From a virus: a DNA stretch of 64,000 bases. This document shows, in pieces, positions 4,841 through 21,794 of this stretch. The notes under the pieces are model-generated. The model made no database searches. It worked only from the letters and a program-made list of their open reading frames with translations, and was not told the DNA's origin. Location of the stretch: positions 1 to 64,000 of IMG/VR virus record IMGVR_UViG_3300032323_002909, one strand, 5' to 3'. The stretch's first letter is position 1. The number at the start of each line of letters is the position of its first letter. Made by a program: the position numbers and the translations under genes.

Positions 4841-4846
4841 TAAATT

Positions 4847-5842: not shown

Positions 5843-5853
5843 AAAATAAATTT

Positions 5854-6846: not shown

Positions 6847-6849
6847 ATT

Positions 6850-7088: not shown

Positions 7089-7094
7089 AATAAC

Positions 7095-7550: not shown

Positions 7551-7555
7551 AACTT

Positions 7556-7767
7556 TTGTCGGCTCAAGTGGATGAGATGATCTCGTGTCCTCGCGACACG
7601 ACCAATTCTGAACTGAGCTTGGTAAGCTAAAGATATTGAAAACGACATTGAACGCTATCATCGCTTTGTAGCAAAAATTCAAAACTCAAGATGCTGTTTT
7701 CAAAAATCAAATCTTAAAGCATAAACCTTAAATCACAGTCTATCAGATCTGAAGTTTGAGCCGACAA
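7556..7767 (+). ncRNA. putative structured ncRNA with heptad-repeat loop
   Basis: 12-bp perfect terminal inverted repeat TTGTCGGCTCAA/TTGAGCCGACAA, several internal stems, 7-nt periodic loop, no plus-strand ORF. Confidence 0.65.
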
Positions 7768-7802
7768 TCCTTAAAAACCACAAGATAATCATCGCACACA
7801 AT

Positions 7803-7940
7803 ATGAAAAAATACATTTATCGCATTTGGAATTTCTTTAGACCGTTCGAGCAACCAAAATATGGTGCTAAAATCTTTCAACAGAAAAGTTGGCTTGAAAA
7901 ACAGGTAAATGAAGAGTTGATAAAAATAAAATATCAATAA
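7803..7940 (+). CDS. hypothetical protein (45 aa)
   Basis: ORF after cassette motif at 7772. Confidence 0.45.
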   Translation: MKKYIYRIWNFFRPFEQPKYGAKIFQQKSWLEKQVNEELIKIKYQ

Positions 7941-8043
7941 ATAGTATTGACAACTCAAACAGTTATGATAAATCTTTTTAACTGCGTGGGTAGTCCCATC
8001 GGAAAATGGTTGTGATACCGTTACAACTACAAAAATATAAAAA

Positions 8044-8118
8044 GCTACCATCGTCTATCGGTTAGGATAAATGGTTTTCATCCATTAGAGCGGGGTTCGA
8101 TTCCCCGTGGTAGTGCCA
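8044..8118 (+). tRNA. tRNA-Glu(TTC)
   Basis: GCTACCA/TGGTAGT acceptor, AATGG-TTTTCAT-CCATT anticodon arm, GGTTCGA T-loop, CCA. Confidence 0.92.
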
Positions 8119-8210
8119 ATTTAGAGCGGCTCTTGTGTCTAGGAAGAGTCTCCAAAGAGTCAAGGTTATGACTTGCTGCCGTTAACTCGGAACGGACTCA
8201 ATTTTCAAAA

Positions 8211-8295
8211 GGGTAGGTAAAGCTAGTGGCTCTAGCAGCGAGACTGTAAATTTCGTCTCTTCGGAGGGGTGGATCAATACCACACCTGCCCACCA
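8211..8295 (+). tRNA. tRNA-Tyr(GTA)
   Basis: GGGTAGG/CCTGCCC acceptor, CGAGA-CTGTAAA-TTTCG, long variable arm, atypical T-loop ATCAATA, CCA. Confidence 0.85.
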
Positions 8296-8311
8296 ATTTT
8301 ATAATACCAAA

Positions 8312-8389
8312 GCCTTGGTATCGGAACTGACTTCTAATCAGTAGCACCGTAACGGATCAATGGAGGTTCGAGTCCTCTCCAAGGCACCA
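8312..8389 (+). tRNA. atypical D-armless tRNA-Arg(TCT)-like RNA
   Basis: Perfect GCCTTGG/CCAAGGC acceptor plus ACCA, ACTGA-CTTCTAA-TCAGT, canonical T-arm; only 7 nt in place of the D-arm. Confidence 0.7.
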
Positions 8390-8397
8390 CTTTCAAT

Positions 8398-8474
8398 CGT
8401 CCAGTAGCTCAGGTGGTAAGAGCGCGTGCCTTATAAGTGCGAGGTCATGGGTTCAAAACCCATCTGGACAACCA
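8398..8474 (+). tRNA. tRNA-Ile(TAT)
   Basis: TAGCTCAGGTGGTAAGAGC D-arm, CGTGC-CTTATAA-GTGCG, T-arm, CCA; C1:A72 mismatch. Confidence 0.85.
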
Positions 8475-8618
8475 CTTAAACAAAAATGACACTTATAGCA
8501 ATAATACTTACACTTTTTTCACTGGAAACTAGAACAATTATTTTACCACTTGCAACTGTTGGAGCATGGATATACGTTTGGATGCATTAAAAACCACATT
8601 ACCATAACCACACACGAT

Positions 8619-8798
8619 ATGAGACAATACACAAACCGATTGATTGAATTAGTAGAGGAAGGTATCTTAGATGCTGAAAACGTAATGAGAGCTTGTCTTA
8701 GTTATATGTCAGAGCATGAAGTTCAAGACCTATGTGAGAGTGAAGGATATATCGAGGAAGAGGAAGAAGATGAATCTGGTATTCCTTGGGAAGAATAA
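8619..8798 (+). CDS. small acidic protein (paralog of 15149..15337)
   Basis: MRQYTNRLIELVEEGILD...ACLSYMSE; Glu-rich tail; start set by cassette motif. Confidence 0.75.
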   Translation: MRQYTNRLIELVEEGILDAENVMRACLSYMSEHEVQDLCESEGYIEEEEEDESGIPWEE

Positions 8799-8848
8799 AA
8801 ACCACATTAAAGTAATTGCGCTCCCTGCAACAACAACCATAAACACAC

Positions 8849-9130
8849 ATGACTAACCAAATTGATACAAGCAACCCACGTCACGCCGCAGCATACACGC
8901 TTGCAGCAGGACATTTTCTCTCTGACCTTGGAGGCTACGAGGGTATGGAATTGGAAACCCTTCTCAACCTCGATGAGGATGATGCAACTCCAGAGCAGTT
9001 GGCGAAACGCAGCAAGATCATTCTGTGGGGTGTCTTTGAAAGAGGATGTGACCGTATGGATGATCCATATCTTTACGTTGCTGACATTATTGAGATGTTG
9101 GCACTTGATTTTCTCAACTTCAACGCCTAA
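8849..9130 (+). CDS. hypothetical acidic protein
   Basis: 93 aa, bounded by cassette motifs. Confidence 0.65.
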   Translation: MTNQIDTSNPRHAAAYTLAAGHFLSDLGGYEGMELETLLNLDEDDATPEQLAKRSKIILWGVFERGCDRMDDPYLYVADIIEMLALDFLNFNA

Positions 9131-9187
9131 TAAAAACCACATTAAAGTAATTGCGCTCCCTGTAACAATAAACAACTAACTACTACT

Positions 9188-9388
9188 ATGACCTACAAAG
9201 TATTTAATGCCAACCTCGTCTTAGGTGAGAATCATGTTCAATCAAATCTCCGCACTATCTTGACTCGAAAAGAGACTGATGTGATTGAGAGTCTGATGCT
9301 TGCCCTCTCTAATGCAGGTATCGAGCTTCCCATCAAGGAAACACAAATTGCGTTGGAGGCTTGTGCCGACGCCTTGGGTAACAACTAA
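9188..9388 (+). CDS. hypothetical protein
   Basis: 66 aa after cassette motif. Confidence 0.6.
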   Translation: MTYKVFNANLVLGENHVQSNLRTILTRKETDVIESLMLALSNAGIELPIKETQIALEACADALGNN

Positions 9389-9414
9389 TCAACAACAACT
9401 AACTAACTACTACT

Positions 9415-9918
9415 ATGCCAAACTGGAACGAAAATCGCCTTGTAATCAAAAACGACACTCCTGCTCTACGTGACTATCTCAAAGAGAACGGCTTGAGCTT
9501 CAAGAAAATTGCGCCACCCGCTTGTCCAGAAGAGCGCGATGAAACTGGATGGAACATCGTTGCCGCTCAAACTGCTGCTTGGGGAACTAAGTGGGATCTG
9601 GATGACAACGAACAAAAACACGCTGCCAACGATCTTATCGAAAACGGTGAATGCAGATTCGATACCGCTTGGTCTCCTCCTATTGAGGCTATCGCCAAAC
9701 TCTCAGAACAGTTCCCAGAAGTTGATTTTGAGCTTCATTACAACGAACCAGGCTGTGCCTTTTATGGGACTGCTTACATCTCTGATGGCGTGGTCAATGA
9801 TGAATGCTCTAACATTGGAGACAAAGACGATTATTTCTCGTTCTTGGTTGAGTTTATGGGTCATGATCAAGAGGATGCGGAAGAAGCCGCAGGTCTTCAT
9901 GAAGACGAAGAAGAATAA
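9415..9918 (+). CDS. DUF1281/YubB-like ferredoxin-fold protein
   Basis: MPNWNEN...WGTKWD...FDTAWSPP...YNEPG motifs. Confidence 0.8.
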   Translation: MPNWNENRLVIKNDTPALRDYLKENGLSFKKIAPPACPEERDETGWNIVAAQTAAWGTKWDLDDNEQKHAANDLIENGECRFDTAWSPPIEAIAKLSEQFPEVDFELHYNEPGCAFYGTAYISDGVVNDECSNIGDKDDYFSFLVEFMGHDQEDAEEAAGLHEDEEE

Positions 9919-10009
9919 ACTTTCTATTGCATGGTAGTAAGTCCTCTCCCCTTGGTGGTGCTTGGGGAGAGGCAATCTTAAAAACCACATTACCATAACC
10001 ACACACGAT

Positions 10010-10405
10010 ATGATTACCAAAAACAATATGATCCCCACATTTACTCCAGATCAAAAAATCGAAAATCTCAAACTTGCTATCAAGGCACTGAGGGAGAATC
10101 CGATAAAGGCAAAACATAAAATGACAGATGAGTTGGGTGGTCGATGCTGCCTATGTGTCATTGCTCATGTTGCTGAAGATATCTGTGGTGTCAAGAGGAA
10201 TACTTTCTGTGACTTTCTAACACCAAATATCAATTTGAATAAAATTTTTCCATTCGATAATGTTAATGTCGGTGATAACATATTCTTACAAGGAGAATAT
10301 GCTAGTAATTGGAACGATGGGTGTAATGTAAAGGAAAAGACCCATGCAGAAATTGCTGACATGATCGAAGAGGAATTTATGATTACTGAAAAATCTCCAC
10401 TATGA
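10010..10405 (+). CDS. hypothetical protein (paralog of 11279..11653)
   Basis: LAIKALRENP..GGRCCLCV.AHVAEDI..WNDG..KTH.EIADM. Confidence 0.75.
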   Translation: MITKNNMIPTFTPDQKIENLKLAIKALRENPIKAKHKMTDELGGRCCLCVIAHVAEDICGVKRNTFCDFLTPNINLNKIFPFDNVNVGDNIFLQGEYASNWNDGCNVKEKTHAEIADMIEEEFMITEKSPL

Positions 10406-10596
10406 ACCAACATACATTTGCTGATCCATCAGATTATTTTCTAAAAATTACTACCCAAGATGGGAAAGAGATTATTATAGAAGATTACGATTATGTCAAG
10501 AACATCGACAACACATTACATTATTTCAAAAATAATGAGGTAATCGCTAAAGGTATTTTCGGCATATCATGCAAAAAATATCCTAAGACTGTGTAA
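10402..10596 (+). CDS. hypothetical protein
   Basis: 64 aa, stop overlaps cassette motif. Confidence 0.55.
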   Translation: MNQHTFADPSDYFLKITTQDGKEIIIEDYDYVKNIDNTLHYFKNNEVIAKGIFGISCKKYPKTV

Positions 10597-10623
10597 AAAC
10601 AACTATACTATTGCACCCACAAT

Positions 10624-10770
10624 ATGAACGAAGAACTTGTGACACTACGAAATGAGTTGGCAGATATTTACGAAGAGGTTGAACAATCTCATGGTAAGAA
10701 ATTGCACAAACTAATGGAGAAGGCTTACGAAATTCAAGATAAGATCGCAGAACTCGAAGGACAACTGTAA
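10624..10770 (+). CDS. hypothetical coiled-coil protein (48 aa)
   Basis: ORF read manually between motifs. Confidence 0.55.
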   Translation: MNEELVTLRNELADIYEEVEQSHGKKLHKLMEKAYEIQDKIAELEGQL

Positions 10771-10794
10771 AGACCACATTAAAATCACGCTATC

Positions 10795-11010
10795 ATGTTG
10801 AAAGAACTTAAACTGTCAAGAGATAAGAACGGTAACAAAATCGTCGTCGTTAAAGTCGATGGTCATCGTGCATTCAGTATTCAAACGAACGGTAACTTGT
10901 CAACGACTCATGTCCATGGCATCACCGAAAACACTTTGACACACATCAAACAATATGTTGATGCCTATGGCACACCTGCACAAAAACGTGCAGTTGAGGA
11001 CATTTTCTAA
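10795..11010 (+). CDS. hypothetical protein
   Basis: Cassette ORF. Confidence 0.65.
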   Translation: MLKELKLSRDKNGNKIVVVKVDGHRAFSIQTNGNLSTTHVHGITENTLTHIKQYVDAYGTPAQKRAVEDIF

Positions 11011-11032
11011 AAAACCACATTACAATAAGCGC

Positions 11033-11257
11033 ATGATCGAATACATCAAGATTCCTTGTTCTGATTCTTCTCGCATGGCAATCAACATCACAAAGAATGG
11101 TGAACCATTTGGACAACTCTGGTCTTGGAAAGATACCAAGATCGAGCAACATCCTTGGCATGTTCGTCTTCTGAATGGTCGATACAAGATTGAATGGGGA
11201 AAGAATAAATCCCACGCATTGAAGACTCTCAAGACATGGGTAGAATCCCATGCATAA
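11033..11257 (+). CDS. hypothetical protein
   Basis: Cassette ORF, start 6 nt after TACAAT. Confidence 0.65.
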   Translation: MIEYIKIPCSDSSRMAINITKNGEPFGQLWSWKDTKIEQHPWHVRLLNGRYKIEWGKNKSHALKTLKTWVESHA

Positions 11258-11278
11258 AAACCACATTATCATACTACC

Positions 11279-11653
11279 ATGATCGAACTGAAACAAACAT
11301 TCACGGAAGAACAAAAGAAAGAGAACCTTCGTCTTGCTATCAAAGCACTTAGGGAGAATCCCAAGAAAGCATTGGAAGAAATGCAGGACGAAAACGGTGG
11401 TCGATGCTGCCTGTGCGTTATGGCACATGTTGCAGAAGACATCATGGGCTATGAGAGGGATGAACTATGCGGCACTATGAGTCCATTGTTCAAAATGTCT
11501 GATGTGTTCGCAGTCCAAGAATTGGATATGTATCCAGATAATGTCAAGGTTGGTGAATACCTTGCCAGCAGATGGAACGATGGTGGCAATAATATCGAAG
11601 AAAAGACCCATGTCGAAATTGCTGACATGCTTGAGAAGGAATATCTGCAATAA
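11279..11653 (+). CDS. hypothetical protein (paralog of 10010..10405)
   Basis: Shared CCLC and WND motifs. Confidence 0.75.
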   Translation: MIELKQTFTEEQKKENLRLAIKALRENPKKALEEMQDENGGRCCLCVMAHVAEDIMGYERDELCGTMSPLFKMSDVFAVQELDMYPDNVKVGEYLASRWNDGGNNIEEKTHVEIADMLEKEYLQ

Positions 11654-11674
11654 AAACCACATTAGAATAGCGAC

Positions 11675-11836
11675 ATGCAACACCTCGTATTTGTAATTCA
11701 CGAAAAATACATCACCTATCGTATGAACGGTCAAAATGGTTCACATCCACTGTGTGGAGATTGCGCCATGGCAGTCATCGACTATCTGAAAAGACTCATA
11801 ACGCATAAGACATGCGAAATCATCAACCATAACTAA
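11675..11836 (+). CDS. hypothetical protein (53 aa, CxxC)
   Basis: Cassette ORF read manually. Confidence 0.5.
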   Translation: MQHLVFVIHEKYITYRMNGQNGSHPLCGDCAMAVIDYLKRLITHKTCEIINHN

Positions 11837-11842
11837 AATCAC

Positions 11843-12004
11843 ATGAAAGAAATTACACCAGAAGATTTGATTGCTTTACGCGAAGAAGAAAGCATTCTTG
11901 ATACCATTCTTCAGATCGGCAAGATTCGTGAATACTTTCCCGAAAAGGCAGATGCTGCTCTGGAAGCTATCAAGGGCATTCATGCCACTCTTTGGGAAGA
12001 ATAA
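11843..12004 (+). CDS. hypothetical protein (53 aa)
   Basis: ORF whose TAA starts the next motif. Confidence 0.55.
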   Translation: MKEITPEDLIALREEESILDTILQIGKIREYFPEKADAALEAIKGIHATLWEE

Positions 12005-12025
12005 AAACCACATTAGAATACACTC

Positions 12026-12340
12026 ATGCACAAGATTACAAAACAAAAGATGGTAGACTTCATCATGGCACAACCAGATAGTCGTCCAGTAAATATGCTC
12101 ACAAATTTGTTCACACATGGCGAAGATGAATGTGGTTGTCTGATGGTGGAATATGTCAAAGACCTATTTGAAATTGAAAAGGGACAAATTGCTGCTGGTA
12201 TAACCAATATAAGTATCAAAAATGATGACACGAAAATAAAATGTGTCGCGGAACTAGATTTTTCCATGCGAAACTTATTACAATCTTCTTTTGTCAATCC
12301 ATCCAAAACATTTGGTGAACTGAAGAAATGCCTTCTGTAA
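12026..12340 (+). CDS. hypothetical protein
   Basis: Cassette ORF. Confidence 0.65.
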   Translation: MHKITKQKMVDFIMAQPDSRPVNMLTNLFTHGEDECGCLMVEYVKDLFEIEKGQIAAGITNISIKNDDTKIKCVAELDFSMRNLLQSSFVNPSKTFGELKKCLL

Positions 12341-12382
12341 AAACCACATTACAATCCACACAACAAACAAGCACACACTATT

Positions 12383-12859
12383 ATGGGACTCGACATGTAT
12401 CTTAACCGCACGAATCGCACCAATCACACAATCGAAGAATTGCAGGAGATTGACCACGATGGAATAACGCCAGAAAGCCCAGAAGCTGCGCCGTTTCTGC
12501 CTCTCCGCAAGTATGAATATCTGGAGGATGTTTATAGCATCTTTCATCTGGTCGCATACTGGCGCAAATTCAACGCCTTACACAACTGGTTTGTCACTCG
12601 TGTGCAAGGTGGCGTTGATGAGTGCCAACTGTCAGAAATCGACGAGGAGACTCTTGTCGAACTGATTGATGACCTCAAAGCTGTCAGCAAGGGAGAAGTC
12701 ATTGAAGACTTAGAACCTGTCTCTGGTTTCTTCTTTGGTTCTACTGACAAGGATGAGTATTACCTTGAGCAGATCAATCATGCTCTGAATACTTTCGAGG
12801 ATGTTTTGAAGACCTTCGACTTCAAGAAATACCGACTCTTCTACCGCGCCAGTTGGTAA
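12383..12859 (+). CDS. conserved phage protein
   Basis: MGLDMYL...YWRKFNALHNWF...GFFFG...YRASW family. Confidence 0.8.
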   Translation: MGLDMYLNRTNRTNHTIEELQEIDHDGITPESPEAAPFLPLRKYEYLEDVYSIFHLVAYWRKFNALHNWFVTRVQGGVDECQLSEIDEETLVELIDDLKAVSKGEVIEDLEPVSGFFFGSTDKDEYYLEQINHALNTFEDVLKTFDFKKYRLFYRASW

Positions 12860-12880
12860 AAACTACATTAGAATCGTGCC

Positions 12881-13300
12881 ATGTCCGATACATACTACCG
12901 CAACGACACACCACAAAAAGTCCGTGATATTCTCGAAAATGCTCGTATATCAAATACCAGAGTCAAACTTTACTATGGTGATACCAAAAACGGTAAAGAT
13001 TGGATGGAAGAACATCACACAACAGGAAGAATTGGTCGTTCCACTGGTAGAGTGAAGATTCCTATTCTTTTGAGTAACTCACGTTCTCGTGGTGGCGTTG
13101 CAATTTCTGACAACAGCATAGTCAGAATCAAAGTGAATGGTCAAGAAGTCTATCGCCATCCACAATATCACCAGAAGAAGATTGAAATCGTTCGTGATGA
13201 AAAAAATGGTTATGAATACAGTATCAATCTTGATGGGGTGATTTATTCAAGACACAAGACATACAAAAGCGCGCAGTTACTTGCTGGTAAGCTATCGTAA
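12881..13300 (+). CDS. conserved hypothetical protein
   Basis: YGDTKNGKDW.EE...GRIGRSTG..KIPILL...RGG.AI motif. Confidence 0.75.
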   Translation: MSDTYYRNDTPQKVRDILENARISNTRVKLYYGDTKNGKDWMEEHHTTGRIGRSTGRVKIPILLSNSRSRGGVAISDNSIVRIKVNGQEVYRHPQYHQKKIEIVRDEKNGYEYSINLDGVIYSRHKTYKSAQLLAGKLS

Positions 13301-13321
13301 AAACTACATTAGAATCGTGCC

Positions 13322-13681
13322 ATGCCCACGAAAGTTCGAGTCTACTTTAACCTCCACAAGAAACTCCTGTCCGTTCAAACCAAGGTGAATGGACGATGGA
13401 AAGTCATCAAACATGTTGACGGGATTGCCTTGCGAGATGTTTGTTTTAAGGTCAGTGAAGTAGGAAGACAAAGAGTATTACGTGAAAAACGTAAGAATGT
13501 CCATGCTTTCATTGAGGGCGAAGAATGCCCTTTGTATGGTGACATCAACCGAAAACTTGATTGCAAAGTCACTTACAACCCTTACAAGTATGAAAAGTTC
13601 ACTACTTGTGAAAAATATGTTGACAAAGCAGAATATGCCCGTATTATTGGGCGCACAATCTTAGCAATCAATCCACAATAA
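13322..13681 (+). CDS. conserved phage protein
   Basis: VYFNLHK...GRQRVLREKRKNVHAF...YNPY family. Confidence 0.8.
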   Translation: MPTKVRVYFNLHKKLLSVQTKVNGRWKVIKHVDGIALRDVCFKVSEVGRQRVLREKRKNVHAFIEGEECPLYGDINRKLDCKVTYNPYKYEKFTTCEKYVDKAEYARIIGRTILAINPQ

Positions 13682-13685
13682 CACC

Positions 13686-13832
13686 ATGAAGAATATCAAA
13701 GCATTCATCTTAGGAGTAATCGAATTTAGAAGTCACATGACCACCAGTGTCAGCAATGATCTGATTGAAGTCTATGATCGTGGAAGAGAACTAGCACACC
13801 GTTTGACCTTTCGCAAATTTGAACAGGAATAA
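13686..13832 (+). CDS. hypothetical protein (48 aa)
   Basis: ORF read manually, stop in motif. Confidence 0.55.
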   Translation: MKNIKAFILGVIEFRSHMTTSVSNDLIEVYDRGRELAHRLTFRKFEQE

Positions 13833-13951
13833 AAACCACATTAGAATCGTGCCATGCCTGAAATTAACGACAACGACCTACAAGACTACATCGACTACAT
13901 CGTTTTCGGTGTGACAAAATGACGCAGTAAAGACCACAATAGAATAACGCT

Positions 13952-14236
13952 ATGACCAGAAACGGACTAATCAATCAGTTACTAATCACCAAACAAGTCG
14001 ATGCTCGATACATGGATGAATATGGAGATATCCACATGGAAAGTCTCGATGTTAGCTATCATCCTGTCTATGAACATGGAGGAGAATACATGGGAGAACA
14101 TTTCCTATTTGAATGGGAAGATGGTGGTGCTACTCTGTGGGTAGATGAAATGGATGAACTGGAGTATTCGGGAGACGAATGGGTATCTTTCCATGATCCT
14201 AACTATGGAACAATCGAGTTCAAGATACCCACGTAA
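13952..14236 (+). CDS. hypothetical acidic protein
   Basis: Cassette ORF. Confidence 0.65.
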   Translation: MTRNGLINQLLITKQVDARYMDEYGDIHMESLDVSYHPVYEHGGEYMGEHFLFEWEDGGATLWVDEMDELEYSGDEWVSFHDPNYGTIEFKIPT

Positions 14237-14266
14237 AAACTACAATAGAATAGTGCCACAATGAAT

Positions 14267-14350
14267 GGCAAGGTGGTGGAATTGGTAGACACTACAGACT
14301 TAAAATCTGTTGTTCATTTGAACGTGAGGGTTCGAGTCCCTTCCTTGCTA
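14267..14350 (+). tRNA. tRNA-Leu(TAA), no encoded CCA
   Basis: GGCAAGG/CCTTGCT acceptor, ACAGA-CTTAAAA-TCTGT, long variable arm, GGTTCGAGTCC. Confidence 0.92.
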
Positions 14351-14376
14351 CTTAAAGACTACAATAGAATCATAGC

Positions 14377-14565
14377 ATGACCGAAAACGAAAAACTGAGA
14401 AACGAAAACTGGGAACTTCAAAAGCGCATGAATGACTACCGTGGTGCGCTTTGCTTTCTCTCTGGTTACTTTATGGTAAGTGAACCATTGGTTCGTCGTA
14501 AGATTGAGCAGTTCCTAAAGGATGAGGATTTGGCGAAATTCGCAGACTTCAGTGGAGAGGAATAG
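14377..14565 (+). CDS. hypothetical protein
   Basis: Cassette ORF. Confidence 0.6.
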   Translation: MTENEKLRNENWELQKRMNDYRGALCFLSGYFMVSEPLVRRKIEQFLKDEDLAKFADFSGEE

Positions 14566-14714
14566 AAGAATAGTGAGACAAAATGACGCAGTAAAAACTA
14601 TATTAAACTAACGAAACGCGCTATCGAAAAAATGTTGGTCGTGACATAGCGCGACAAAATGACACACTTACTGTGACAAAATGACGCAGTAAAGACCACA
14701 TTAGAATAATTTAT

Positions 14715-14790
14715 GCGCTTGTAGCTCAGTGGTTAGAGCAGGGGTCTCATAAACCCTTGGTCACTGGTTCAAATCCAGTCGGGCGCACCA
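14715..14790 (+). tRNA. tRNA with CAT anticodon (Ile2-like; Met not excluded)
   Basis: GCGCTTG/CGGGCGC, TAGCTCAGTGGTTAGAGCA, CTCATAA loop, TTGGTC, CCA; resembles bacterial tRNA-Ile2. Confidence 0.9.
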
Positions 14791-14818
14791 CTCATAAAAA
14801 CCACATTAAACTACACCC

Positions 14819-15127
14819 ATGATATTAAACTTAACACCACACTCGATTACTGACACGGTGACTAACACCACATTTCCACCACACGGTTCTACTGTTCCCA
14901 GAGTAGCAACGACCTCTATCCAAGTGGGTGATATTGATGGAATACCATTGTTTGCCACGACCTTTGGTGACGTTCAAGATGCTCCACCAATTCAAGATGG
15001 TGTGTTCTACATCGTCAGTCTATTGGTAAAACAGGCATTACCACATCGTAAGGACTTGCTATCACCAGGAACTCTCGTTAGAGATGACAAGGGCAACCCC
15101 ATTGGATGCAAGGGATTCAACGCATAA
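14819..15127 (+). CDS. conserved hypothetical protein
   Basis: ILNLTPH...YIVS...RKDLLSP...VRDDKG.PIGC family. Confidence 0.8.
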   Translation: MILNLTPHSITDTVTNTTFPPHGSTVPRVATTSIQVGDIDGIPLFATTFGDVQDAPPIQDGVFYIVSLLVKQALPHRKDLLSPGTLVRDDKGNPIGCKGFNA

Positions 15128-15148
15128 AAACCACATTAAACTGCACTT

Positions 15149-15337
15149 ATGTCACGCTACTACACAAACCAACTGCTGGAAATGATCGAAGAAGGTATCC
15201 TTGATAAGGACACTGTTATTAACGCCTGTCTCTCATACATGTCTGAAGCTGAAGTTCAGGACATGATGGAATCGAATGAGTTCATCGAAGAAGAGGAAGA
15301 AGAGGAGGACGAGGAAGAAGAGGAAGAAGAGGAGTAA
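15149..15337 (+). CDS. small acidic protein with poly-Glu tail
   Basis: Paralog of 8619..8798. Confidence 0.75.
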   Translation: MSRYYTNQLLEMIEEGILDKDTVINACLSYMSEAEVQDMMESNEFIEEEEEEEDEEEEEEEE

Positions 15338-15358
15338 AAACCACCTTAAACTATTGCC

Positions 15359-15524
15359 ACGCCAGTTAATCACTGGCTAGTCGGGGGTGCGAAGCCGATG
15401 ATGAAGCACTGTGATTGGTGTAAAACACTGTAGGTAAATCCTCGCTAGGGGGAGCGTCATCCTTATGTCCCAGAGGGAAACCGTTGAAGGGGCATAGTCT
15501 TTCGAGACAAGGGAATCCCCACCA
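15359..15524 (+). ncRNA. putative structured ncRNA ending in acceptor-like stem plus CCA
   Basis: Occupies a whole cassette with no ORF; at least 7 hairpins; GGGGGT(15383)/ATCCCC(15515)-ACCA. Confidence 0.6.
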
Positions 15525-15554
15525 TCTTAAAAACCACATTAAACTGATGGCGTT

Positions 15555-15674
15555 ATGAAATACAAACACTGCACTATCCTCAAGGCAATCACTGGTTACA
15601 ATGTATATTCTTGCAATGACATTCACAATGTCTCTTCTATTACAGAAGCAAAAACACTCATCGACAGTCTGTAA
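15555..15674 (+). CDS. hypothetical protein (39 aa)
   Basis: Cassette ORF. Confidence 0.5.
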   Translation: MKYKHCTILKAITGYNVYSCNDIHNVSSITEAKTLIDSL

Positions 15675-15702
15675 AAACCACATTAAACTACTACCACACC
15701 AT

Positions 15703-16026
15703 ATGAAATACAACTGGAAACCTGTTATTAATTCGTTCTTCACCATCGCACTCGCCCATGGGTTCACCCTCCACACTGTAGACAACGGTGATGGCGAGGA
15801 TGTTCTTATGAATACCATCGAGGAAGCAGTGGAAGAAGTCGCTGCCACGGATCAATCTCACGTGGTTCTACTTGCTCCTGATGGCAAGCGTGTGTGGTTC
15901 TTTCTGGTTCTTGGCAACGAGCCATACGAAACGATCTGTGACTACTCTGTCTATGATCTGGCAGACGATGTGCATGCGGAGTTCTCAGACGAATGGGAAG
16001 GCAAACCCTGCCCACAAATCGCATAA
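15703..16026 (+). CDS. hypothetical acidic protein
   Basis: Cassette ORF; start corrected by motif. Confidence 0.7.
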   Translation: MKYNWKPVINSFFTIALAHGFTLHTVDNGDGEDVLMNTIEEAVEEVAATDQSHVVLLAPDGKRVWFFLVLGNEPYETICDYSVYDLADDVHAEFSDEWEGKPCPQIA

Positions 16027-16054
16027 AAACCACCGCAAACTATTGCCGCACCTT

Positions 16055-16153
16055 ATGCTGATTCTGATATTACTTTCCTTATTTGCGCTGGAATCGCGCT
16101 CTATAGTATTTGCTGTTGCAATAATAAGTTCTTGGATTTACTACTTCATCTGA
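16055..16153 (+). CDS. small hydrophobic peptide
   Basis: 32-aa cassette ORF. Confidence 0.4.
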   Translation: MLILILLSLFALESRSIVFAVAIISSWIYYFI

Positions 16154-16184
16154 TAAAAACCACATTAAACTACTGACACACCTT

Positions 16185-16451
16185 ATGACAAACACCGACA
16201 TTATTACTAAGTTCCTCAATGGCGCAATCACTGGCAAGATTCGTCGCACTAACTCCTACACAGGGGGAAATCACACTCCCTTGTTCATCGAGGGCGATAC
16301 CCTCTTTTCCTATGGTCATCACTATGAACTGGCAAAGCGCATGCCTGACGGTTCTGTGTGGGTGAACAATACACGCTACAGCGCAACCACAAGCAAGCAT
16401 GCTTCACTGGTTCGTTCCGTAGCGATTCGCAAGGGCATTGCCCTTTCCTAA
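16185..16451 (+). CDS. conserved hypothetical protein
   Basis: LFSYG.HY.LA...YSATTSKH motif. Confidence 0.75.
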   Translation: MTNTDIITKFLNGAITGKIRRTNSYTGGNHTPLFIEGDTLFSYGHHYELAKRMPDGSVWVNNTRYSATTSKHASLVRSVAIRKGIALS

Positions 16452-16545
16452 CTTTCTATTGGTTGACATGGCAAAAGTCCTCCCTCTCTGGTGGTTCGGA
16501 GAGGGGGGCAAGCCATGGTAAAAACCACATTAAACTGATGACGTT

Positions 16546-16767
16546 ATGATTCACCTAGCAACACTGCCGCAATACTACCGCACCCGCAAGGGTATCTCTA
16601 TGATCGTGCGTGATTACAACCTACCCTCTGGCAATGCCAAGGGCAAGGGCAACCGTGCGAAACGCCGCCAAGGTCTCTACGTTCCCAACCCCGACCACAT
16701 GAAGCCCTTTGGTCTCATTGGTATGGATCGTGGACAGATCGCTGCCATGATGAAACGCCCTGCATAA
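16546..16767 (+). CDS. hypothetical basic protein
   Basis: Cassette ORF. Confidence 0.65.
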   Translation: MIHLATLPQYYRTRKGISMIVRDYNLPSGNAKGKGNRAKRRQGLYVPNPDHMKPFGLIGMDRGQIAAMMKRPA

Positions 16768-16791
16768 AAACCACATTAAACTAATGTCGCC

Positions 16792-16947
16792 ATGCTAACA
16801 ATCAATAAAACTTACTACATCAATGGGAAAGCAGTCGTTTTTCTTGGAGAATCAGACGTTAAAGGCAAAGGCTTTTTTCGAGAGCTTGGAGAACCTGACA
16901 CTTTCTTTTCTTATCCCATTTACAAGGTAAGAAAACGCCCTGCATAA
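16792..16947 (+). CDS. hypothetical protein (51 aa)
   Basis: Cassette ORF, same KRPA* end as previous gene. Confidence 0.55.
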   Translation: MLTINKTYYINGKAVVFLGESDVKGKGFFRELGEPDTFFSYPIYKVRKRPA

Positions 16948-16968
16948 AAACCACATTAAACTACTACC

Positions 16969-17211
16969 ATGCCCACTGCAACTATCAACCCCAAAGAGAT
17001 CGCGGTAACTCACACCGTGCGTCCCGATGTTAATCGCGAGTTCCTCACCGTCGAATGTCCTAACGGATGGGATGACGTGAAAAAACTCACAAAGAAAGTC
17101 CTGACCTATGAGGATCGCAAGTTCACCTTTTGTAGTTGGAACTCTGACTACAACTACGCATCGTTTGTGTGTCCGTTGAATGGAAAACCATCTATCGCCA
17201 CCATCTCCTGA
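16969..17211 (+). CDS. hypothetical protein
   Basis: Cassette ORF. Confidence 0.65.
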   Translation: MPTATINPKEIAVTHTVRPDVNREFLTVECPNGWDDVKKLTKKVLTYEDRKFTFCSWNSDYNYASFVCPLNGKPSIATIS

Positions 17212-17243
17212 GATGGTAAAAACCACCTTAAACTGACTGTGCC

Positions 17244-17417
17244 ATGAATTGGATCAAAGTAAATGATGAGGACGTGTTACACGTCTGGGTAAATGATGAG
17301 ACGAACGAAGAAGTGGAGGTCTCTCCTGACTTCTACGAAAACAACGGTGAACCCTGTGACGACTGTGGCAATGTCCTGAGATATTCCCACACACTGGTAA
17401 AAACCACATTAAACTGA
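17244..17417 (+). CDS. hypothetical acidic protein (CxxC)
   Basis: Cassette ORF read manually. Confidence 0.55.
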   Translation: MNWIKVNDEDVLHVWVNDETNEEVEVSPDFYENNGEPCDDCGNVLRYSHTLVKTTLN

Positions 17418-17424
17418 CTGTGCC

Positions 17425-17799
17425 ATGACTACCATCGAGTTCGACAAAGTTATTACCACCGCTCAATCCAAAACGATCCCTAGCAATGCGCTGGGGATCA
17501 TGAGCATCGCACCAGTCTATGACTGCAATACGCACAAAAACGTGCGTGGTAAAGTCATGCTCTCCTTTCGAATGAGCATTGACAGCACCCGCAATGCAAT
17601 CGAAAATCACAAGATCCTACTCGCTGAAGCACCCTTGGTGCAAGCGTGGTTTCCATCGTATCGTGTTCCATCGCTGGCTCAAATTGAATCGCATCTTAAA
17701 ACGGTTCATCGCATGACTGCCAGCATCAAGCGCGAGGGAGCGATTGCTGAAAGGTCTTTACCATCACCACTCATCGGCATGATGGGCAAGTGGGCGTAA
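17425..17799 (+). CDS. hypothetical protein
   Basis: Cassette ORF. Confidence 0.65.
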   Translation: MTTIEFDKVITTAQSKTIPSNALGIMSIAPVYDCNTHKNVRGKVMLSFRMSIDSTRNAIENHKILLAEAPLVQAWFPSYRVPSLAQIESHLKTVHRMTASIKREGAIAERSLPSPLIGMMGKWA

Positions 17800-17823
17800 A
17801 AACCACATTAAACTTACTGTGCC

Positions 17824-18384
17824 ATGACTACCATGACCACCACCGATACTGCCTCCCCTCGTCAGACGTTCGCCCTTTTCTGTGCCACTGGCAAGGACTG
17901 GCGAAACGCAAACCTATCTCGCGAACAGGTCTCTGCCATGCTTACCGCATGCCAAAGCGTTCGCGGTAACAAGGCTGCTGCACTGGCAATCTGCGAAAGC
18001 GTATTGTCAGGCAAGCCATTGCCATCACCAGCACCAGCAACCCCTTCATGGCAAGCTATCTATGATGAAGCGTGTGCTGCTGGCAAGGCTGCTGCTGAAG
18101 CATGCAAGCCTGAGCCTATGTATGTCGAAGGCTATTCACGACCCATCATGGGTGGCGTTTGTGGCTTCGCTGGGGTGAAGTTTCCCGATGCTCGCAAACC
18201 GTTTGCCAAGTGGCTGGTAAAGCAAGGCATCGCTCGTAAGAACTACGGCACGGGTGTCTATGTCAATATGGGATTCGAGATCGGTGGGCAATCCCTAACG
18301 ATCAAGGAGCATTATGCCAGCGCGTTTGCCAGCGTATGCGCAAAGCACGGTATCGAATGCCGCATGGATAGCCGCATCGACTGA
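17824..18384 (+). CDS. conserved phage protein
   Basis: GVCGFAGV...FAKWL...QS..KE.YA.AFA.V...SRID family. Confidence 0.75.
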   Translation: MTTMTTTDTASPRQTFALFCATGKDWRNANLSREQVSAMLTACQSVRGNKAAALAICESVLSGKPLPSPAPATPSWQAIYDEACAAGKAAAEACKPEPMYVEGYSRPIMGGVCGFAGVKFPDARKPFAKWLVKQGIARKNYGTGVYVNMGFEIGGQSLTIKEHYASAFASVCAKHGIECRMDSRID

Positions 18385-18451
18385 TCGTAAAAACCACAAT
18401 AAGATCATGGCACGGCAAGTCACCTACTTGCCGTGTTTAACTACTACCATT

Positions 18452-18718
18452 ATGAGAACACTTGTCCTTAAAACTGTTAGCCATAACTGCAAAGTCTTGG
18501 CGTTTGTATTGAATCGTTGTTACGATCACGTGGCACGGGTGCTGCCTACCATCACACTGATTGTCACGGCACTGGCAATGCTCATCGCTCCCACGCTCAT
18601 CTTGATGGCAATCATCATGCTAAAGCCTGTTGGCGCGATGCTGGCACTGCTTCTGCTGTTGCTTTTCACGTCCTGTAGCTCATGCGTGTTCATGTTGGAC
18701 TACGTGCAACGCCGATAA
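18452..18718 (+). CDS. membrane protein
   Basis: Two long hydrophobic segments; start uncertain. Confidence 0.55.
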   Translation: MRTLVLKTVSHNCKVLAFVLNRCYDHVARVLPTITLIVTALAMLIAPTLILMAIIMLKPVGAMLALLLLLLFTSCSSCVFMLDYVQRR

Positions 18719-18742
18719 AAACTACCTTAAACTGACTGTGCC

Positions 18743-18979
18743 ATGATTGACTATTCAACAAAACCTATGTGCGAAGACGCACCCTGCTGCGGGTGCTGCG
18801 GTCGGGATCGTTTTGAACCTGACTACGGCGATGAGTCTTTTGATTGGATGATGCCACCAAACGGTGCATTTTTCGACGACCAAGATGAGGAAGACTACAG
18901 TCACCAGTGCGATGAGATGGGTGAGGAAGACCGTTACCTTGATGCGTCTTGGGAAGATCGCTTTGATTGCGAAGCGTAA
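18743..18979 (+). CDS. acidic Cys-cluster protein
   Basis: CEDAPCCGCCG motif, Asp/Glu-rich. Confidence 0.7.
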   Translation: MIDYSTKPMCEDAPCCGCCGRDRFEPDYGDESFDWMMPPNGAFFDDQDEEDYSHQCDEMGEEDRYLDASWEDRFDCEA

Positions 18980-19003
18980 AAACCACCTTAAACTGACTGT
19001 GCC

Positions 19004-19234
19004 ATGATTGACTATGTCTCTACCAGCGAGGGTGAAGGTTACTTCACCGTGAACGGCAAGCGTGGGTTCTCCTGCGCTTGCGTATTGGATATGTTCCTAC
19101 GTGGGATTAAAGCAAGCGCAACGGCATTGCCTATTCTCACCGAGTGGAAAGCCAAAAAGGGTGTTAAAGCAATACGTGCTGAAGCAGCATGGGAGCGTTT
19201 CGCAAACGACAACCCAGAGCTAAGTCACCTGTAA
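19004..19234 (+). CDS. hypothetical protein
   Basis: Cassette ORF. Confidence 0.65.
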   Translation: MIDYVSTSEGEGYFTVNGKRGFSCACVLDMFLRGIKASATALPILTEWKAKKGVKAIRAEAAWERFANDNPELSHL

Positions 19235-19258
19235 AAACTACCTTAAACTGTCCATACC

Positions 19259-19543
19259 ATGAATACCATGTCACACACCACCACCGCTACTACCATCGCT
19301 ACCATGCTCACCGCTATGGAAAAAGACGCTCACGCTATTTACGCTGCTGCTCGTGCGCATGCTGCTGATACTGCTGCTGCTGCTCGTGCGCATGCTGCCT
19401 ATCTTAGTTACGCCCCCAATCCTGATGCTGCTGCGCATGCACGTGCGCATGCTGCTTATGATGTTGCCGTCGAAGCTGAACGCGCTCGGAATGTTGCTGC
19501 GCGGGTTCTTTATGCTATGACTAACCCGATCTGTGGTTGTTAA
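19259..19543 (+). CDS. Ala-rich repeat protein
   Basis: ARAHAA repeats. Confidence 0.6.
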   Translation: MNTMSHTTTATTIATMLTAMEKDAHAIYAAARAHAADTAAAARAHAAYLSYAPNPDAAAHARAHAAYDVAVEAERARNVAARVLYAMTNPICGC

Positions 19544-19567
19544 AAACCACAGTAAACTGTCCATGCC

Positions 19568-19846
19568 ATGAATATCACCATCACATCCGCACCCGCGCCA
19601 GCATTCAACTGGAAAGAATTTAAGGCAGCTACCCTTGCCAAGGGCAAGCTACCATATGCCATCTGGTATGCCAAATCAGGGGTCGAGTGCTACGTATGCA
19701 CCGATGACAGCGACTTGAACTCAGTCATCAACGACTGCCGCGCAGGTGCCTCCATCATGGAGGAGAGCTATTTCGAGTGTTACGTCGATAGCAGTGGCAA
19801 GTTCTATTCCGAAAAGTCCCGCTGGTGCGGAGTCTATAGAGGTTAA
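19568..19846 (+). CDS. hypothetical protein
   Basis: Cassette ORF. Confidence 0.65.
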   Translation: MNITITSAPAPAFNWKEFKAATLAKGKLPYAIWYAKSGVECYVCTDDSDLNSVINDCRAGASIMEESYFECYVDSSGKFYSEKSRWCGVYRG

Positions 19847-19870
19847 AAACCACCTTAAACTGTCCATACC

Positions 19871-20203
19871 ATGAATACCATGACACACGCCACACCCGCC
19901 CACGCGAAATATGCCACCCGCCTCGAACTCCACCACGACTGGAAAGTCGTGCGTGGGATCGTTTTGAACCTCTGCGATGCGATGGAGCAATTAAACTCCA
20001 CTGACGCAGATGACTCGCTACTACAGTGGAGCAACCTGAGCAGCAGCAAGTCTGCTTATGGCTTCGCACGGAAAGCACTGCGCGAGGTCGTGCTTGCACA
20101 GTTCAATTTCGATCTTGATACGGTCGATGTGAACTGGGGAGGTGCTGGTGGTAGTTGGGCAAACGATGTCAAAGAGGTGCTTGTGCAGCACCTAGTTGCC
20201 TGA
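19871..20203 (+). CDS. hypothetical protein
   Basis: Cassette ORF. Confidence 0.65.
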   Translation: MNTMTHATPAHAKYATRLELHHDWKVVRGIVLNLCDAMEQLNSTDADDSLLQWSNLSSSKSAYGFARKALREVVLAQFNFDLDTVDVNWGGAGGSWANDVKEVLVQHLVA

Positions 20204-20270
20204 TAAAAACCACCTTAAACTGATGGCACGGTGAGGCGTCTCACCGTGCTACCCAATAACTACTGAACTT

Positions 20271-20468
20271 ATGAAAAGCATTACTCATCACCAAGTCAAG
20301 ATCACAAAAGCAAAAGTCATCGCTAGCAAGCGCGGCGTGACGCAAGGGGGATTGAACATCTCACTTGTCAATGGTATCAAAGTCCTGTGGCAAGCCAAGG
20401 GCAACAAGGTGGCAGTGTTCTCATCACCCTTGGAAGGTGAGCAGAACCTACTCGGAACTCTGGCATAA
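20271..20468 (+). CDS. hypothetical protein
   Basis: Cassette ORF. Confidence 0.55.
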   Translation: MKSITHHQVKITKAKVIASKRGVTQGGLNISLVNGIKVLWQAKGNKVAVFSSPLEGEQNLLGTLA

Positions 20469-20492
20469 AAACCACAGTAAACTGTCCATACC

Positions 20493-20729
20493 ATGAATAC
20501 CATGCCACACACACTCTGGAGCTTGTCCCGCGAGCAAGGTTTCACCTATGCGCCCAAGGGACTGAGTCAAGTCTATGCCGTTGTCCCGATGTCACACGGT
20601 GACTTCGCTGCCGTCATGCACGGTCTCGAACACCTTAGCGACCACAGTATCAGGCAACGCTACCAAGACGGCAATCGAATGATTGTCATCTTGGACAAGG
20701 CAAGCCAAGGTGTCCCATACGGTAATTAA
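20493..20729 (+). CDS. hypothetical protein
   Basis: Last cassette ORF. Confidence 0.6.
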   Translation: MNTMPHTLWSLSREQGFTYAPKGLSQVYAVVPMSHGDFAAVMHGLEHLSDHSIRQRYQDGNRMIVILDKASQGVPYGN

Positions 20730-20747
20730 AAACAACCGCTGATTCTC

Positions 20748-20783
20748 AGCCCTCAGTGTCTTCGGACGCTGGGGGCTTTTTTT
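20748..20783 (+). terminator. intrinsic terminator ending the cassette array
   Basis: AGCCCTCAGTGTC-TTCG-GACGCTGGGGGCT followed by T-run. Confidence 0.9.
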
Positions 20784-20878
20784 GTTTTTAGGCATAGGTG
20801 GTTTTTACGAGGGGGGGGGGTCTGTTAGGAATAGGATAAAAACTACATCGGGGTGGGTGGGTAGGGGGGTGCCATGGC

Positions 20879-20967
20879 TAAAAATTTTTTTTATATATTT
20901 TTTGGAATTTTCCTTATAGCGCTCCTATTTTATAAAAATTTTTTTTATATATTTTTTGGAATTTTCC
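20879..20967. repeat. two perfect 35-bp AT-rich direct repeats
   Basis: TAAAAATTTTTTTTATATATTTTTTGGAATTTTCC at 20879-20913 and 20933-20967. Confidence 0.9.
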
Positions 20968-20992
20968 CATTAATCCCGTCATCCATCCCCAT

Positions 20993-21364
20993 TTACAATC
21001 TATTTATCAACCAACCGTTTTCCAAAGAAGAGTCCAGACCATAGTAATCTCCATCTAGAAAATCAAGTTTGACTGTTCCTTTTCTTGATATCTGGTGATC
21101 AGAGGGGAGGATTTTCACATTCATGTAAGCTTCTCCTTCGATTATGGCTTGTAATAAACGGTGGTGTCCATCAGCAACGATATATTTACTTTTATCTTTA
21201 TAAGCTGTTATGGGACTTTTATCAGAAGAATATTGTCCTTTACGTAAGGAATCAACGGCAACTTCCATATTGACTTTGTCTGGTAATAGATTTTCAATTG
21301 CTATTTTTTTCAAACCTGTTTGATTTGATTCCCTTAGACAATAATATTTTTGAAAAGTCAACAT
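20993..21364 (-). CDS. ParB/Srx-like domain protein
   Basis: PI...YIVADGHHRL motif; capsid-targeting-like N-terminus. Confidence 0.7.
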   Translation of the reverse strand: MLTFQKYYCLRESNQTGLKKIAIENLLPDKVNMEVAVDSLRKGQYSSDKSPITAYKDKSKYIVADGHHRLLQAIIEGEAYMNVKILPSDHQISRKGTVKLDFLDGDYYGLDSSLENGWLINRL

Positions 21365-21368
21365 ATGA

Positions 21369-21794
21369 TTATTTAATTGTTGTTATTTTATGACCTACGT
21401 GAATGTATCCGTTTTTTGAATCAACTGGATACATCCCTATTTTTGGAATGGAGATTGCAGGGAATTCTGCAATCAATTCTTCGCCCACGAAGAACTGTAA
21501 TTTATTGTCTCTGTGCTTTACCATAATAACAACATCGGGGTGTTTGTGTGGAAGTGATATTATTTCTTTATAGATTGGTTCATTGACAAAGGAAATCGCA
21601 TCTGATTCAAAATTTGAACCTGTGTATTTCTGACGATATATTGTTCCTGTCTTACCAAGTTTATATATAGATCCTCTTTCTGTTTCAAATTCATATACGG
21701 GATTTGCTTTATCTTGTTCTTTTTCTTTTCGTTGCATCAGCATCTGTTCTCGAAAGGATTCCCTTAGACAATAATATTTTTCGAAAGATATCAT
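21369..21794 (-). CDS. putative internal virion protein
   Basis: Start MISFEKYYCLRES shared with neighbour. Confidence 0.65.
   Translation of the reverse strand: MISFEKYYCLRESFREQMLMQRKEKEQDKANPVYEFETERGSIYKLGKTGTIYRQKYTGSNFESDAISFVNEPIYKEIISLPHKHPDVVIMVKHRDNKLQFFVGEELIAEFPAISIPKIGMYPVDSKNGYIHVGHKITTIK

Follow-up and report, generated by a model that had tools for sequence, protein, structure and literature searches.

In phage T4, pre-late genes and transfer RNAs (tRNAs) are transcribed from middle promoters, which combine a MotA box near -30 with a -10 element and are read through sigma appropriation by MotA and AsiA. T4-type phages also carry mobile regulatory cassettes, the promoter-early and promoter-middle stem-loops (PeSLs and PmSLs; Arbiol et al. 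2010, PMC2839356; PMC4122927). A PeSL consists of a stem-loop, a sigma-70 promoter of the -35/N17/-10 type (in a PmSL, a Mot box at -30 instead), a Shine-Dalgarno sequence and a start codon, and PeSLs occur in hyperplastic regions with insertions and deletions (Comeau et al. 2014, PMC4122927). The intergenic repeats of the halovirus HF2 are promoters in a reporter assay (PMC8707807). Leaderless expression from a hexamer next to the open reading frame (ORF) has been shown experimentally in Deinococcus-Thermus (PMC12340547), and most middle and late messages of the Thermus phage phiYS40 are leaderless, as reviewed in PMC3594737. Here we analysed the first 64 kb (hereafter the window, the whole stretch of DNA under study) of a single 150,461-bp virus record (IMGVR_UViG_3300032323_002909; G+C 34.4%), listed in IMG/VR as linear and about 73% complete (CheckV). 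At 8588-20729 on the plus strand, the window carries an array of 40 copies (39 strong, 1 degenerate) of an 18-base element that heads about 36 small ORFs, two tRNAs and two ORF-less units. We consider it probable that this element is a promoter without a -35, made of a 10-bp box, a 2-bp linker and a TAnnnT hexamer, which is used about 40 times in a row, gives leaderless messages, doubles as a recombination joint and has a dedicated reader.

The consensus of the element is T-AAAAACCAC, followed by two variable bases and the hexamer. A position-weight matrix was built from the motif copies, and sites scoring at least 15 were counted over the whole record. The scan returned 41 sites, all on the plus strand and all within 2492-20467; 39 of them lie within 8589-20467, and none is found in the remaining 130 kb, in agreement with the repeat array described in the first-pass annotation. 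On that strand, the best sites outside 2492-20467 score at most 9.5. In the window, a looser 13-mer has 42 matches, compared with 5.6 +/- 2.4 in shuffled sequences, and direct reading of the sequence adds one degenerate copy at 10594-10611, with the box TAAAAACAAC. The density in the array is one motif per approximately 305 bp. Across the copies, the first T of the hexamer is kept in 38/40, the A in 40/40 and the final T in 40/40, and the inner bases are variable. The ATG follows the hexamer mostly by 6 nt (12 copies), 9 nt (14 copies) or 13 nt (6 copies), as had been noted before; the gap is 27-49 nt in five copies, and four head no ORF. The leading TAA was said to be usually the stop codon of the previous gene, which holds only loosely, as it terminates an upstream ORF in frame in 25/41 copies. 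The leading T is present in 40 of the 41 copies, stop codon or not, and is therefore part of the motif.

Counted from the hexamer start, the positions -45 to -14 each hold at most 0.22 bit of sequence information, and the array promoters therefore have no -35, as had been proposed. Consistent with this, a scan for the sigma-70 -35/-10 consensus shows no enrichment (36 versus 29.4 +/- 6.2), and neither a TG extension nor a TGCTT box is found at the array promoters. The earlier statement that nearly every gene is headed by the motif is true of most genes, but those starting at 9415, 10402, 11843 and 13686 have no copy of their own. The two tRNAs and one ORF-less unit had also been recognized as targets: copies stand before tRNA-Leu at 14267 (15 nt past the hexamer), tRNA-Met(CAT) at 14715 (7 nt past the hexamer) and the two ORF-less units at 14592 and 15335. 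The latter unit, which had been taken for an RNA, is not demonstrably structured (z = -0.35), has no Rfam family and has no homologue in the loci of the relatives, and we do not call it a structured RNA. In addition, three copies share a 12-17-nt upstream extension, GACAAAATGACGCAG, at 13917-13929, 14581-14593 and 14679-14691; this extension is also present at position 38-49 of the related contig L234.

The array resembles a PeSL region in that a repeated promoter element flanks single ORFans in a hyperplastic region of a T4-type phage, and in that the indels end in the element. It differs in that 37/39 copies lack a stem-loop and that the element has neither a -35 nor a Shine-Dalgarno sequence; it is just 18 bp long, with a box at -24 to -15, overlaps the stop codon of the upstream gene, abuts the ATG and is far denser. 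Among the defining features of PeSLs, the array element thus shares only the hyperplastic region and the indels, and it works as a PeSL does without being one in structure. The earlier comparison with PeSL-like plug-in units lacking a stem-loop stands for the breakpoints and for these 37 copies, but a strong fold is found within the 45 nt upstream of two of the 39 copies, 9979 and 16519 (-20.5 and -24.3 kcal/mol, respectively; control mean -6.5 kcal/mol). The two folds are G+C-rich hairpins without a T run, at 9931-9975 and 16474-16515, which directly adjoin these copies on their upstream side. Both hairpins belong to a two-copy element (9918-9975 and 16449-16515) that starts with CTTTCTATTG, has a 9-10-bp stem and lies between a gene end and a promoter. 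These are the only PeSL-like junctions of stem-loop plus promoter in the array. The HF2 repeats are likewise repeated intergenic promoters of a myovirus whose sequence and position are conserved among relatives (PMC8707807), but they belong to an archaeal system, are 29 and 58 bp long, number only a few per genome, not one for each gene, and have no described role in cassette exchange.

The bases downstream of the hexamer were compared among the 29 copies whose ATG does not lie at 6 nt. Position 6 past the hexamer is a pyrimidine in 27/29 and position 7 a purine in 28/29 of them (p about 2e-7 each); the copies include near-duplicates, and approximately 18 independent sequence families are therefore the fairer count. 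A pyrimidine followed by a purine is the usual preference at -1/+1 of transcription starts, and the position of the step follows the hexamer, wherever the ATG lies. In two relatives, the orthologous promoters differ at 1/240 positions in the box and at 0/72 in the T, A and T of the hexamer, compared with 15/48 in the linker, 7/72 in the inner hexamer and 35/168 in the next 7 nt. As judged from these alignments, purifying selection on the box is clear, and the hexamer is conserved and free to vary at the same positions as a -10 element of the sigma-70 family. In front of a tRNA, the motif cannot serve as a translation signal. Taken with the T-A-n-n-n-T pattern and the fixed 6/7-nt step, these tRNA targets favor a promoter over a translation signal, as the first-pass annotation had argued.

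The genome carries two further promoter classes. Canonical promoters (TTGACA-N16-18-TAnnnT, mostly with TGn) front replication and nucleotide-metabolism genes, and in 6/9 of them the ATG lies 6 nt past the hexamer. The late motif, (C/T)TAAATAAT, is the strongest enriched word upstream of the non-array genes, and the ATG lies 5 nt past the late TAAATA in 31 of the 48 such promoters with the ATG at 5-8 nt (for example, at 23008, 39660 and 58575 of the window). We take both distances, 6 nt past a sigma-70 hexamer and 5 nt past the gp55 TAAATA, to mean that transcription starts (+1) on the A of the ATG. The hexamer-to-ATG distance in the array matches the sigma-70 distance of the canonical promoters of the same genome, and the late TATA box is known to lie about one helical turn upstream of the start (PMC2988020). 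All three classes, array, canonical and late, are apparently leaderless by this geometry. Host RNA polymerase would start 7 nt past the array hexamer: the 6-nt class would start on the A of the ATG and be leaderless, the 9-nt class would have a 3-nt leader (GCC, ACC or GUU), the 13-nt class would have a 7-nt leader, and the tRNA-Met transcript would start at, or 1 nt before, the mature 5' end. The predicted leader is at most 7 nt long in 32/41 copies, in line with the leaderless or near-leaderless messages suggested earlier. Five cassettes have leaders of 27-49 nt, which are C/A-rich and G-poor, and two of these leaders (at 18388 and 20204) begin with a hairpin.

A Shine-Dalgarno sequence (GGAG, GAGG or AGGA) is found upstream of none of the 28 array genes examined, as had been observed, but it is also found at only 3/151 genes outside the array, so that its lack is not specific to the array. 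Because Shine-Dalgarno sequences are this scarce, and because a promoter element abuts the ATG in about half of all the genes of the phage, the leaderless design is a trait of the phage and not of the array, and it is presumably also a trait of the host translation system. In a phage without Shine-Dalgarno sequences, whose other promoter classes also abut ATGs, each gene may therefore need its own promoter, as it would if only a 5'-terminal ATG were used efficiently. There are no terminators between the units, and the only strong intrinsic terminator in 7000-21500, at 20748-20787 (13-bp stem with 8 G-C pairs, followed by a T run), comes after the last gene; the transcripts would therefore be nested and 3'-coterminal. 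The promoters of Deinococcus-Thermus and phiYS40 similarly place TAnnnT a few bases before the ATG, without a ribosome-binding site and with little or no dependence on a -35. They lack a conserved 10-bp box beside the hexamer, and no use of them as recombination modules is described, whereas the design found here spans three promoter classes of a T4-type phage, including a gp55-type late class.

The motif might act instead in the RNA, as a site at which a host or phage RNase or a trans-acting ribozyme would divide one long early transcript into pieces of one gene each, or as a stop-restart signal that works without a Shine-Dalgarno sequence. Its overlap with the stop codon of the upstream gene in 25/41 copies would suit such a role, as would its A-rich, unstructured character, like that of the initiation regions used by organisms without Shine-Dalgarno sequences, and the genome-wide lack of such sequences together with the lack of terminators between units. 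However, the conserved and free positions obey the -10 rule T-A-n-n-n-T, the spacing of the pyrimidine/purine step is constant with respect to the hexamer but not to the ATG, the same geometry recurs at the canonical and late promoters, and copies stand at tRNAs and ORF-less units, where a restart is not needed. No ribozyme or other Rfam family is found in the window. We therefore regard an action in the RNA as improbable; cutting by a ribozyme in particular is unsupported, with no ribozyme family within the window.

The phage itself is a distant, uncultured member of the T4 superfamily. This assignment follows from its portal protein, which shows 27-30% identity to gp20 from T4-type phages of cyanobacteria, Vibrio and Pseudomonas, and from genes for a DNA helicase, a ribonucleotide reductase, a CCA-adding enzyme and a gp55-type late sigma (phrog_234, E = 1.6e-23). 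Megablast and blastn searches of the window against GenBank phages found no close relative, only tRNA and low-complexity matches. Searches for the host found no bacterial relatives of a G+C-rich cassette protein or of a PEP-CTERM-like protein. The latter protein (164 amino acids, 5133-5627, with a canonical-type promoter ahead) has a weak C-terminal PEP-CTERM-like motif (E = 0.0027, below the Pfam cut-off); such a sorting signal, if real, would imply a host with exosortase.

Two base pairs separate the hexamer from the box, which is invariant, 10 bp or one helical turn long, and situated at about -24 to -15 of the predicted start, close to where it had first been placed. The host sigma reads TTGACA and TGn in the canonical promoters; the array promoters have neither but have the box, which therefore suggests a separate reader. 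As the box lacks a counterpart in the canonical promoters, a dedicated reader is probable, and the likeliest candidate would be a phage-encoded or injected factor, failing that a host factor. The array may accordingly be an immediate-early class, if the factor is injected, or a delayed-early or middle class, if the factor is made early. Replacement of the -35 by a phage-specific upstream box, with a sigma-70-type -10 retained, is also seen in T4 middle promoters (PMC6024815). The array box differs from the MotA box in sequence and lies about 10 bp closer to the start, beside the -10, and no MotA or AsiA homologue was found in the record, which is about 73% complete.

The 18 bases could also be a promoter for an RNA polymerase that the phage itself encodes, whether of the single-subunit kind or non-canonical in another way, which would start right after the hexamer. 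Promoters of single-subunit polymerases are contiguous up to the start site, and the contiguous, strongly conserved 18-mer with its AT-rich 5' part has this appearance; the first base past the hexamer is a purine in 31/40 copies, and since the record is about 73% complete, the polymerase gene could lie in the missing part. A search for RNA_pol (PF00940) gave no match in the record, which weighs little, as the control genomes gave none either. T4-type phages use the host enzyme, and a gp55 late sigma is encoded here; the variable linker and inner hexamer fit reading by sigma region 2 and not a T7-type promoter, and the canonical sigma-70 promoters of this genome share the hexamer-to-ATG distance. 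We judge such a polymerase to be very improbable, and a sigma-type -10 read together with the box remains our preferred account of the 18-mer.

Related loci allowed the exchange of cassettes to be followed. Scans of IMG/VR and of a metagenome collection with the exact motif returned isolated sites at the level of chance but not one dense array, and a search of IMG/VR with two flanking proteins found no related loci. Relatives were identified through homologues of the 533-amino-acid protein encoded to the right of the array (23020-24621), whose contigs were then examined; the identity of this protein is 91% in L234, 76% in L236 and L237, and 32-37% in several further lineages. L234 and L236 carry arrays at the equivalent place with the identical 10-mer. 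The cassettes common to the window and these relatives are collinear, with 74-98% amino-acid identity, and single cassettes have been inserted, deleted or replaced, such that unique cassettes stand between shared ones; in L236, one cassette occupies another position. The terminator-proximal cassettes have nothing in common with the relatives. In blastn comparisons with these two relatives, the shared blocks open at motif position 0 (within 3 nt) and extend 14-38 nt into the copy that follows; as the homology blocks begin and end in the motif, the cassettes are exchanged there. Unrelated neighboring genes share the promoter, a 9-nt 5' segment and the first three to four codons (MNTM, MIDY, MTT), which therefore offers approximately 40 bp of identity for homologous recombination. 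Recombination at such identity of about 18-40 bp would insert, delete, replace or reorder single genes, in the manner of PeSLs in other T4-type phages. In addition, the 57-codon cassette at 17244-17417 matches the C-terminus of a 224-amino-acid ORF in the distant L242 at 75% identity, indicating that pieces also move between lineages. Of the 20 array proteins compared with Pfam and PHROG, most could be assigned to no family.

From left to right along the array, the G+C content rises from approximately 36-41% to 48-52%, compared with 34% for the genome, and the G+C at third codon positions attains 0.55-0.65 in the last cassettes. The cassettes not common to the relatives are also the richest in G+C and lie next to the terminator. 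One may speculate that cassettes have recently been acquired at the terminator end and then ameliorated. Two pairs of cassettes are paralogous: 8619-8798 and 15149-15337 (64-68% identity, with a poly-Glu tail), and 10010-10405 and 11279-11653 (55% identity, with a conserved GGRCCLCV motif).

Arrays of the same design, built on other boxes, are found in distant lineages, in which the neighboring gene is just 33-36% identical to that of the window. In L243, TAATTAAAACCG-aac-TAnnnT-N6-ATG occurs about 20 times in 10 kb, its TAA overlaps stop codons, and its AAAACC core lies at the same distance from the hexamer as that of the window. In L242 and L251, TAAAACGT adjoins TAnnnT on its upstream side, and the ATG comes 11 nt after the hexamer. 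Three box types were found here in the clade, AAAAACCAC, TTAAAACCG and TAAAACGT; no such repeat is present within the 21 kb examined of L241, L252 and L253. These variants indicate that the design is common to the family, whereas the box around the TAAAAC core differs by lineage. On this basis we tentatively suggest, with more doubt than for the promoter itself, that a TAAAAC-type box beside the -10 may define an undescribed promoter class of a T4-like clade, in which a phage-encoded or injected factor would steer host RNA polymerase without a -35 and co-evolve with the box in each lineage, and in which translation almost exclusively from start codons at the 5' end would force one promoter per gene and so create a universal joint for exchange.

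An integron-like alternative, in which the repeat is the recombination site of a dedicated attC-like cassette system with no role in expression, would account for the breakpoints within the repeat and for the polarity of the array in hexamer type and G+C content, but it can be given hardly any weight, since direct reading of the 18-mer reveals neither a palindrome nor attC-like inverted repeats, the conserved positions are those of a -10 element, the distance to the ATG is quantised and a scan of ten flanking proteins revealed no recombinase.

Several observations weigh against a -35-less promoter with its own reader. No candidate reader was found: the record, from which about a quarter of the genome may be absent, contains no MotA (MotCF), no AsiA and no second sigma, and a Sigma70_r2 search gave one weak match only, which is gp55 itself, and no second gp55-like gene. 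The genes with canonical promoters include no regulators, being metabolic or replication genes instead. Among the proteins flanking the array there is no DNA-binding candidate save an ORF on the opposite strand, near the left end of the record (768-1808, minus strand), which combines LAGLIDADG_3 with a helix-turn-helix and is homing-endonuclease-like. By the rules of Escherichia coli, a promoter that has neither a -35 nor a TG is weak unless it is helped. The copies derive partly from local duplication, so that per-copy statistics overstate their independence, and positions 1, 3 and 8 past the hexamer are biased as well, beside the pyrimidine/purine step. The box of L242 and L251 lies 3 bp nearer to the hexamer, and a single reader common to all lineages is not assured. 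The A-rich motif could also aid internal initiation independent of Shine-Dalgarno sequences. Finally, the case for the promoter is built from the sequence of an uncultured phage.

The individual copies, all on the plus strand, can be followed from left to right. Two strong copies precede the array: an outlying copy with TATAAT at 2491-2508, 6 nt before the ATG of ORF 2515-2676, and a copy with GATAAT at 7772-7789, 13 nt before ORF 7803-7940. A tRNA cluster follows at 8044-8474, in which a fifth tRNA-like gene lies between tRNA-Glu and tRNA-Ile (8312-8386; 41.5 bits with Rfam, missed by ARAGORN). Within the array, the hexamer types occur in blocks: the left part has TACCAT and TAAAGT, the middle TAGAAT and the right TAAACT. 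The left part starts with TACCAT at 8588-8605, 13 nt before ORF 8619-8798. Two TAAAGT copies, at 8796-8813 and 9131-9148, are separated from ORFs 8849-9130 and 9188-9388 by C/A-rich leaders of 35 and 39 nt, respectively, and the next gene without a copy, 9415-9918, belongs to the DUF1281_C family. TACCAT recurs at 9979-9996, beside the first strong hairpin and 13 nt before ORF 10010-10405. The degenerate copy (hexamer TACTAT) stands 12 nt before ORF 10624-10770, and its TAA stops ORF 10402-10596. Three single types complete this part: TAAAAT at 10768-10785 (9 nt to ORF 10795-11010); TACAAT at 11009-11026 (6 nt to ORF 11033-11257), which is the sole copy with an A for the leading T; and TATCAT at 11255-11272 (6 nt to ORF 11279-11653).

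In the middle part, TAGAAT lies 6 nt before the ATG at seven copies, namely, 11651-11668 (ORF 11675-11836), 12002-12019 (ORF 12026-12340), 12857-12874 (ORF 12881-13300), 13298-13315 (ORF 13322-13681, Phage_L5_gp82 family), 13830-13847 (a 22-codon mini-ORF, 13854-13922), 13928-13945 (ORF 13952-14236) and 14353-14370 (ORF 14377-14565). The first and fourth of these ORFs are each followed by an ORF without a copy, at 11843-12004 and 13686-13832. TACAAT at 12338-12355 is linked to ORF 12383-12859 by a 27-nt C/A-rich leader. The TAGAAT copy at 14234-14251 heads tRNA-Leu(TAA) (14267-14351), and that at 14690-14707 heads tRNA-Met(CAT) (14715-14790), whose first base is the eighth nucleotide past the hexamer. 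Between them, TAAACT at 14592-14609 heads the 98-nt ORF-less unit, which contains a hairpin (z = -1.97).

The right part is dominated by TAAACT. The distance to the ATG is 6 nt at 14795-14812 (ORF 14819-15127), 15125-15142 (ORF 15149-15337) and 16945-16962 (ORF 16969-17211). It is 13 nt at 15672-15689 (ORF 15703-16026), 16154-16171 (ORF 16185-16451) and the CAAACT copy at 16024-16041, whose C is kept in both relatives and which precedes a 32-codon hydrophobic ORF (16055-16153). The 193-nt ORF-less unit is headed by the copy at 15335-15352. The 9-nt class comprises 15528-15545 (ORF 15555-15674), 16519-16536 (ORF 16546-16767, with the second strong hairpin ahead), 16765-16782 (ORF 16792-16947), 17217-17234 (ORF 17244-17417, which reads through the next copy), 17398-17415 (ORF 17425-17799), 17797-17814 (ORF 17824-18384), 18716-18733 (ORF 18743-18979), 18977-18994 (ORF 19004-19234), 19232-19249 (ORF 19259-19543), 19541-19558 (ORF 19568-19846), 19844-19861 (ORF 19871-20203) and the last copy, 20466-20483 (ORF 20493-20729). 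Two copies have leaders with a 5' hairpin: TAAGAT at 18388-18405, followed by an ORF with a probable start at 18452 and its end at 18718, and TAAACT at 20204-20221, with a 49-nt leader to ORF 20271-20468.

Past the terminator, G runs are found at 20811-20820 and 20864-20869, together with a partial box on the reverse strand at about 20806 and two 34-bp AT-rich direct repeats at 20880-20913 and 20934-20967. The region 20780-20970 is 88-94% conserved in the relatives; possible roles are those of an origin, a packaging site or a regulatory region that separates divergent units.

Targeted literature searches returned no description of this box or of leaderless T4-type phages. The main interest of the locus is the reader of the box and the genome-wide leaderless design, the box itself being undescribed in the literature searched. 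The invariant box and its lineage-specific variants point to a transcription factor or a sigma-remodelling protein. The motif could serve as an annotation key to the true starts of tiny genes, to tRNA units and to cassette boundaries in metagenomic phage contigs. The array would extend the idea behind PeSLs, in which promoters act as recombination joints, to a minimal, stem-loop-free form of 18 bp, and at the density of the array nearly each accessory gene would be an exchangeable unit. A T4-type phage that is leaderless in all three of its promoter classes would thereby link transcription architecture, translation mechanism and genome plasticity.

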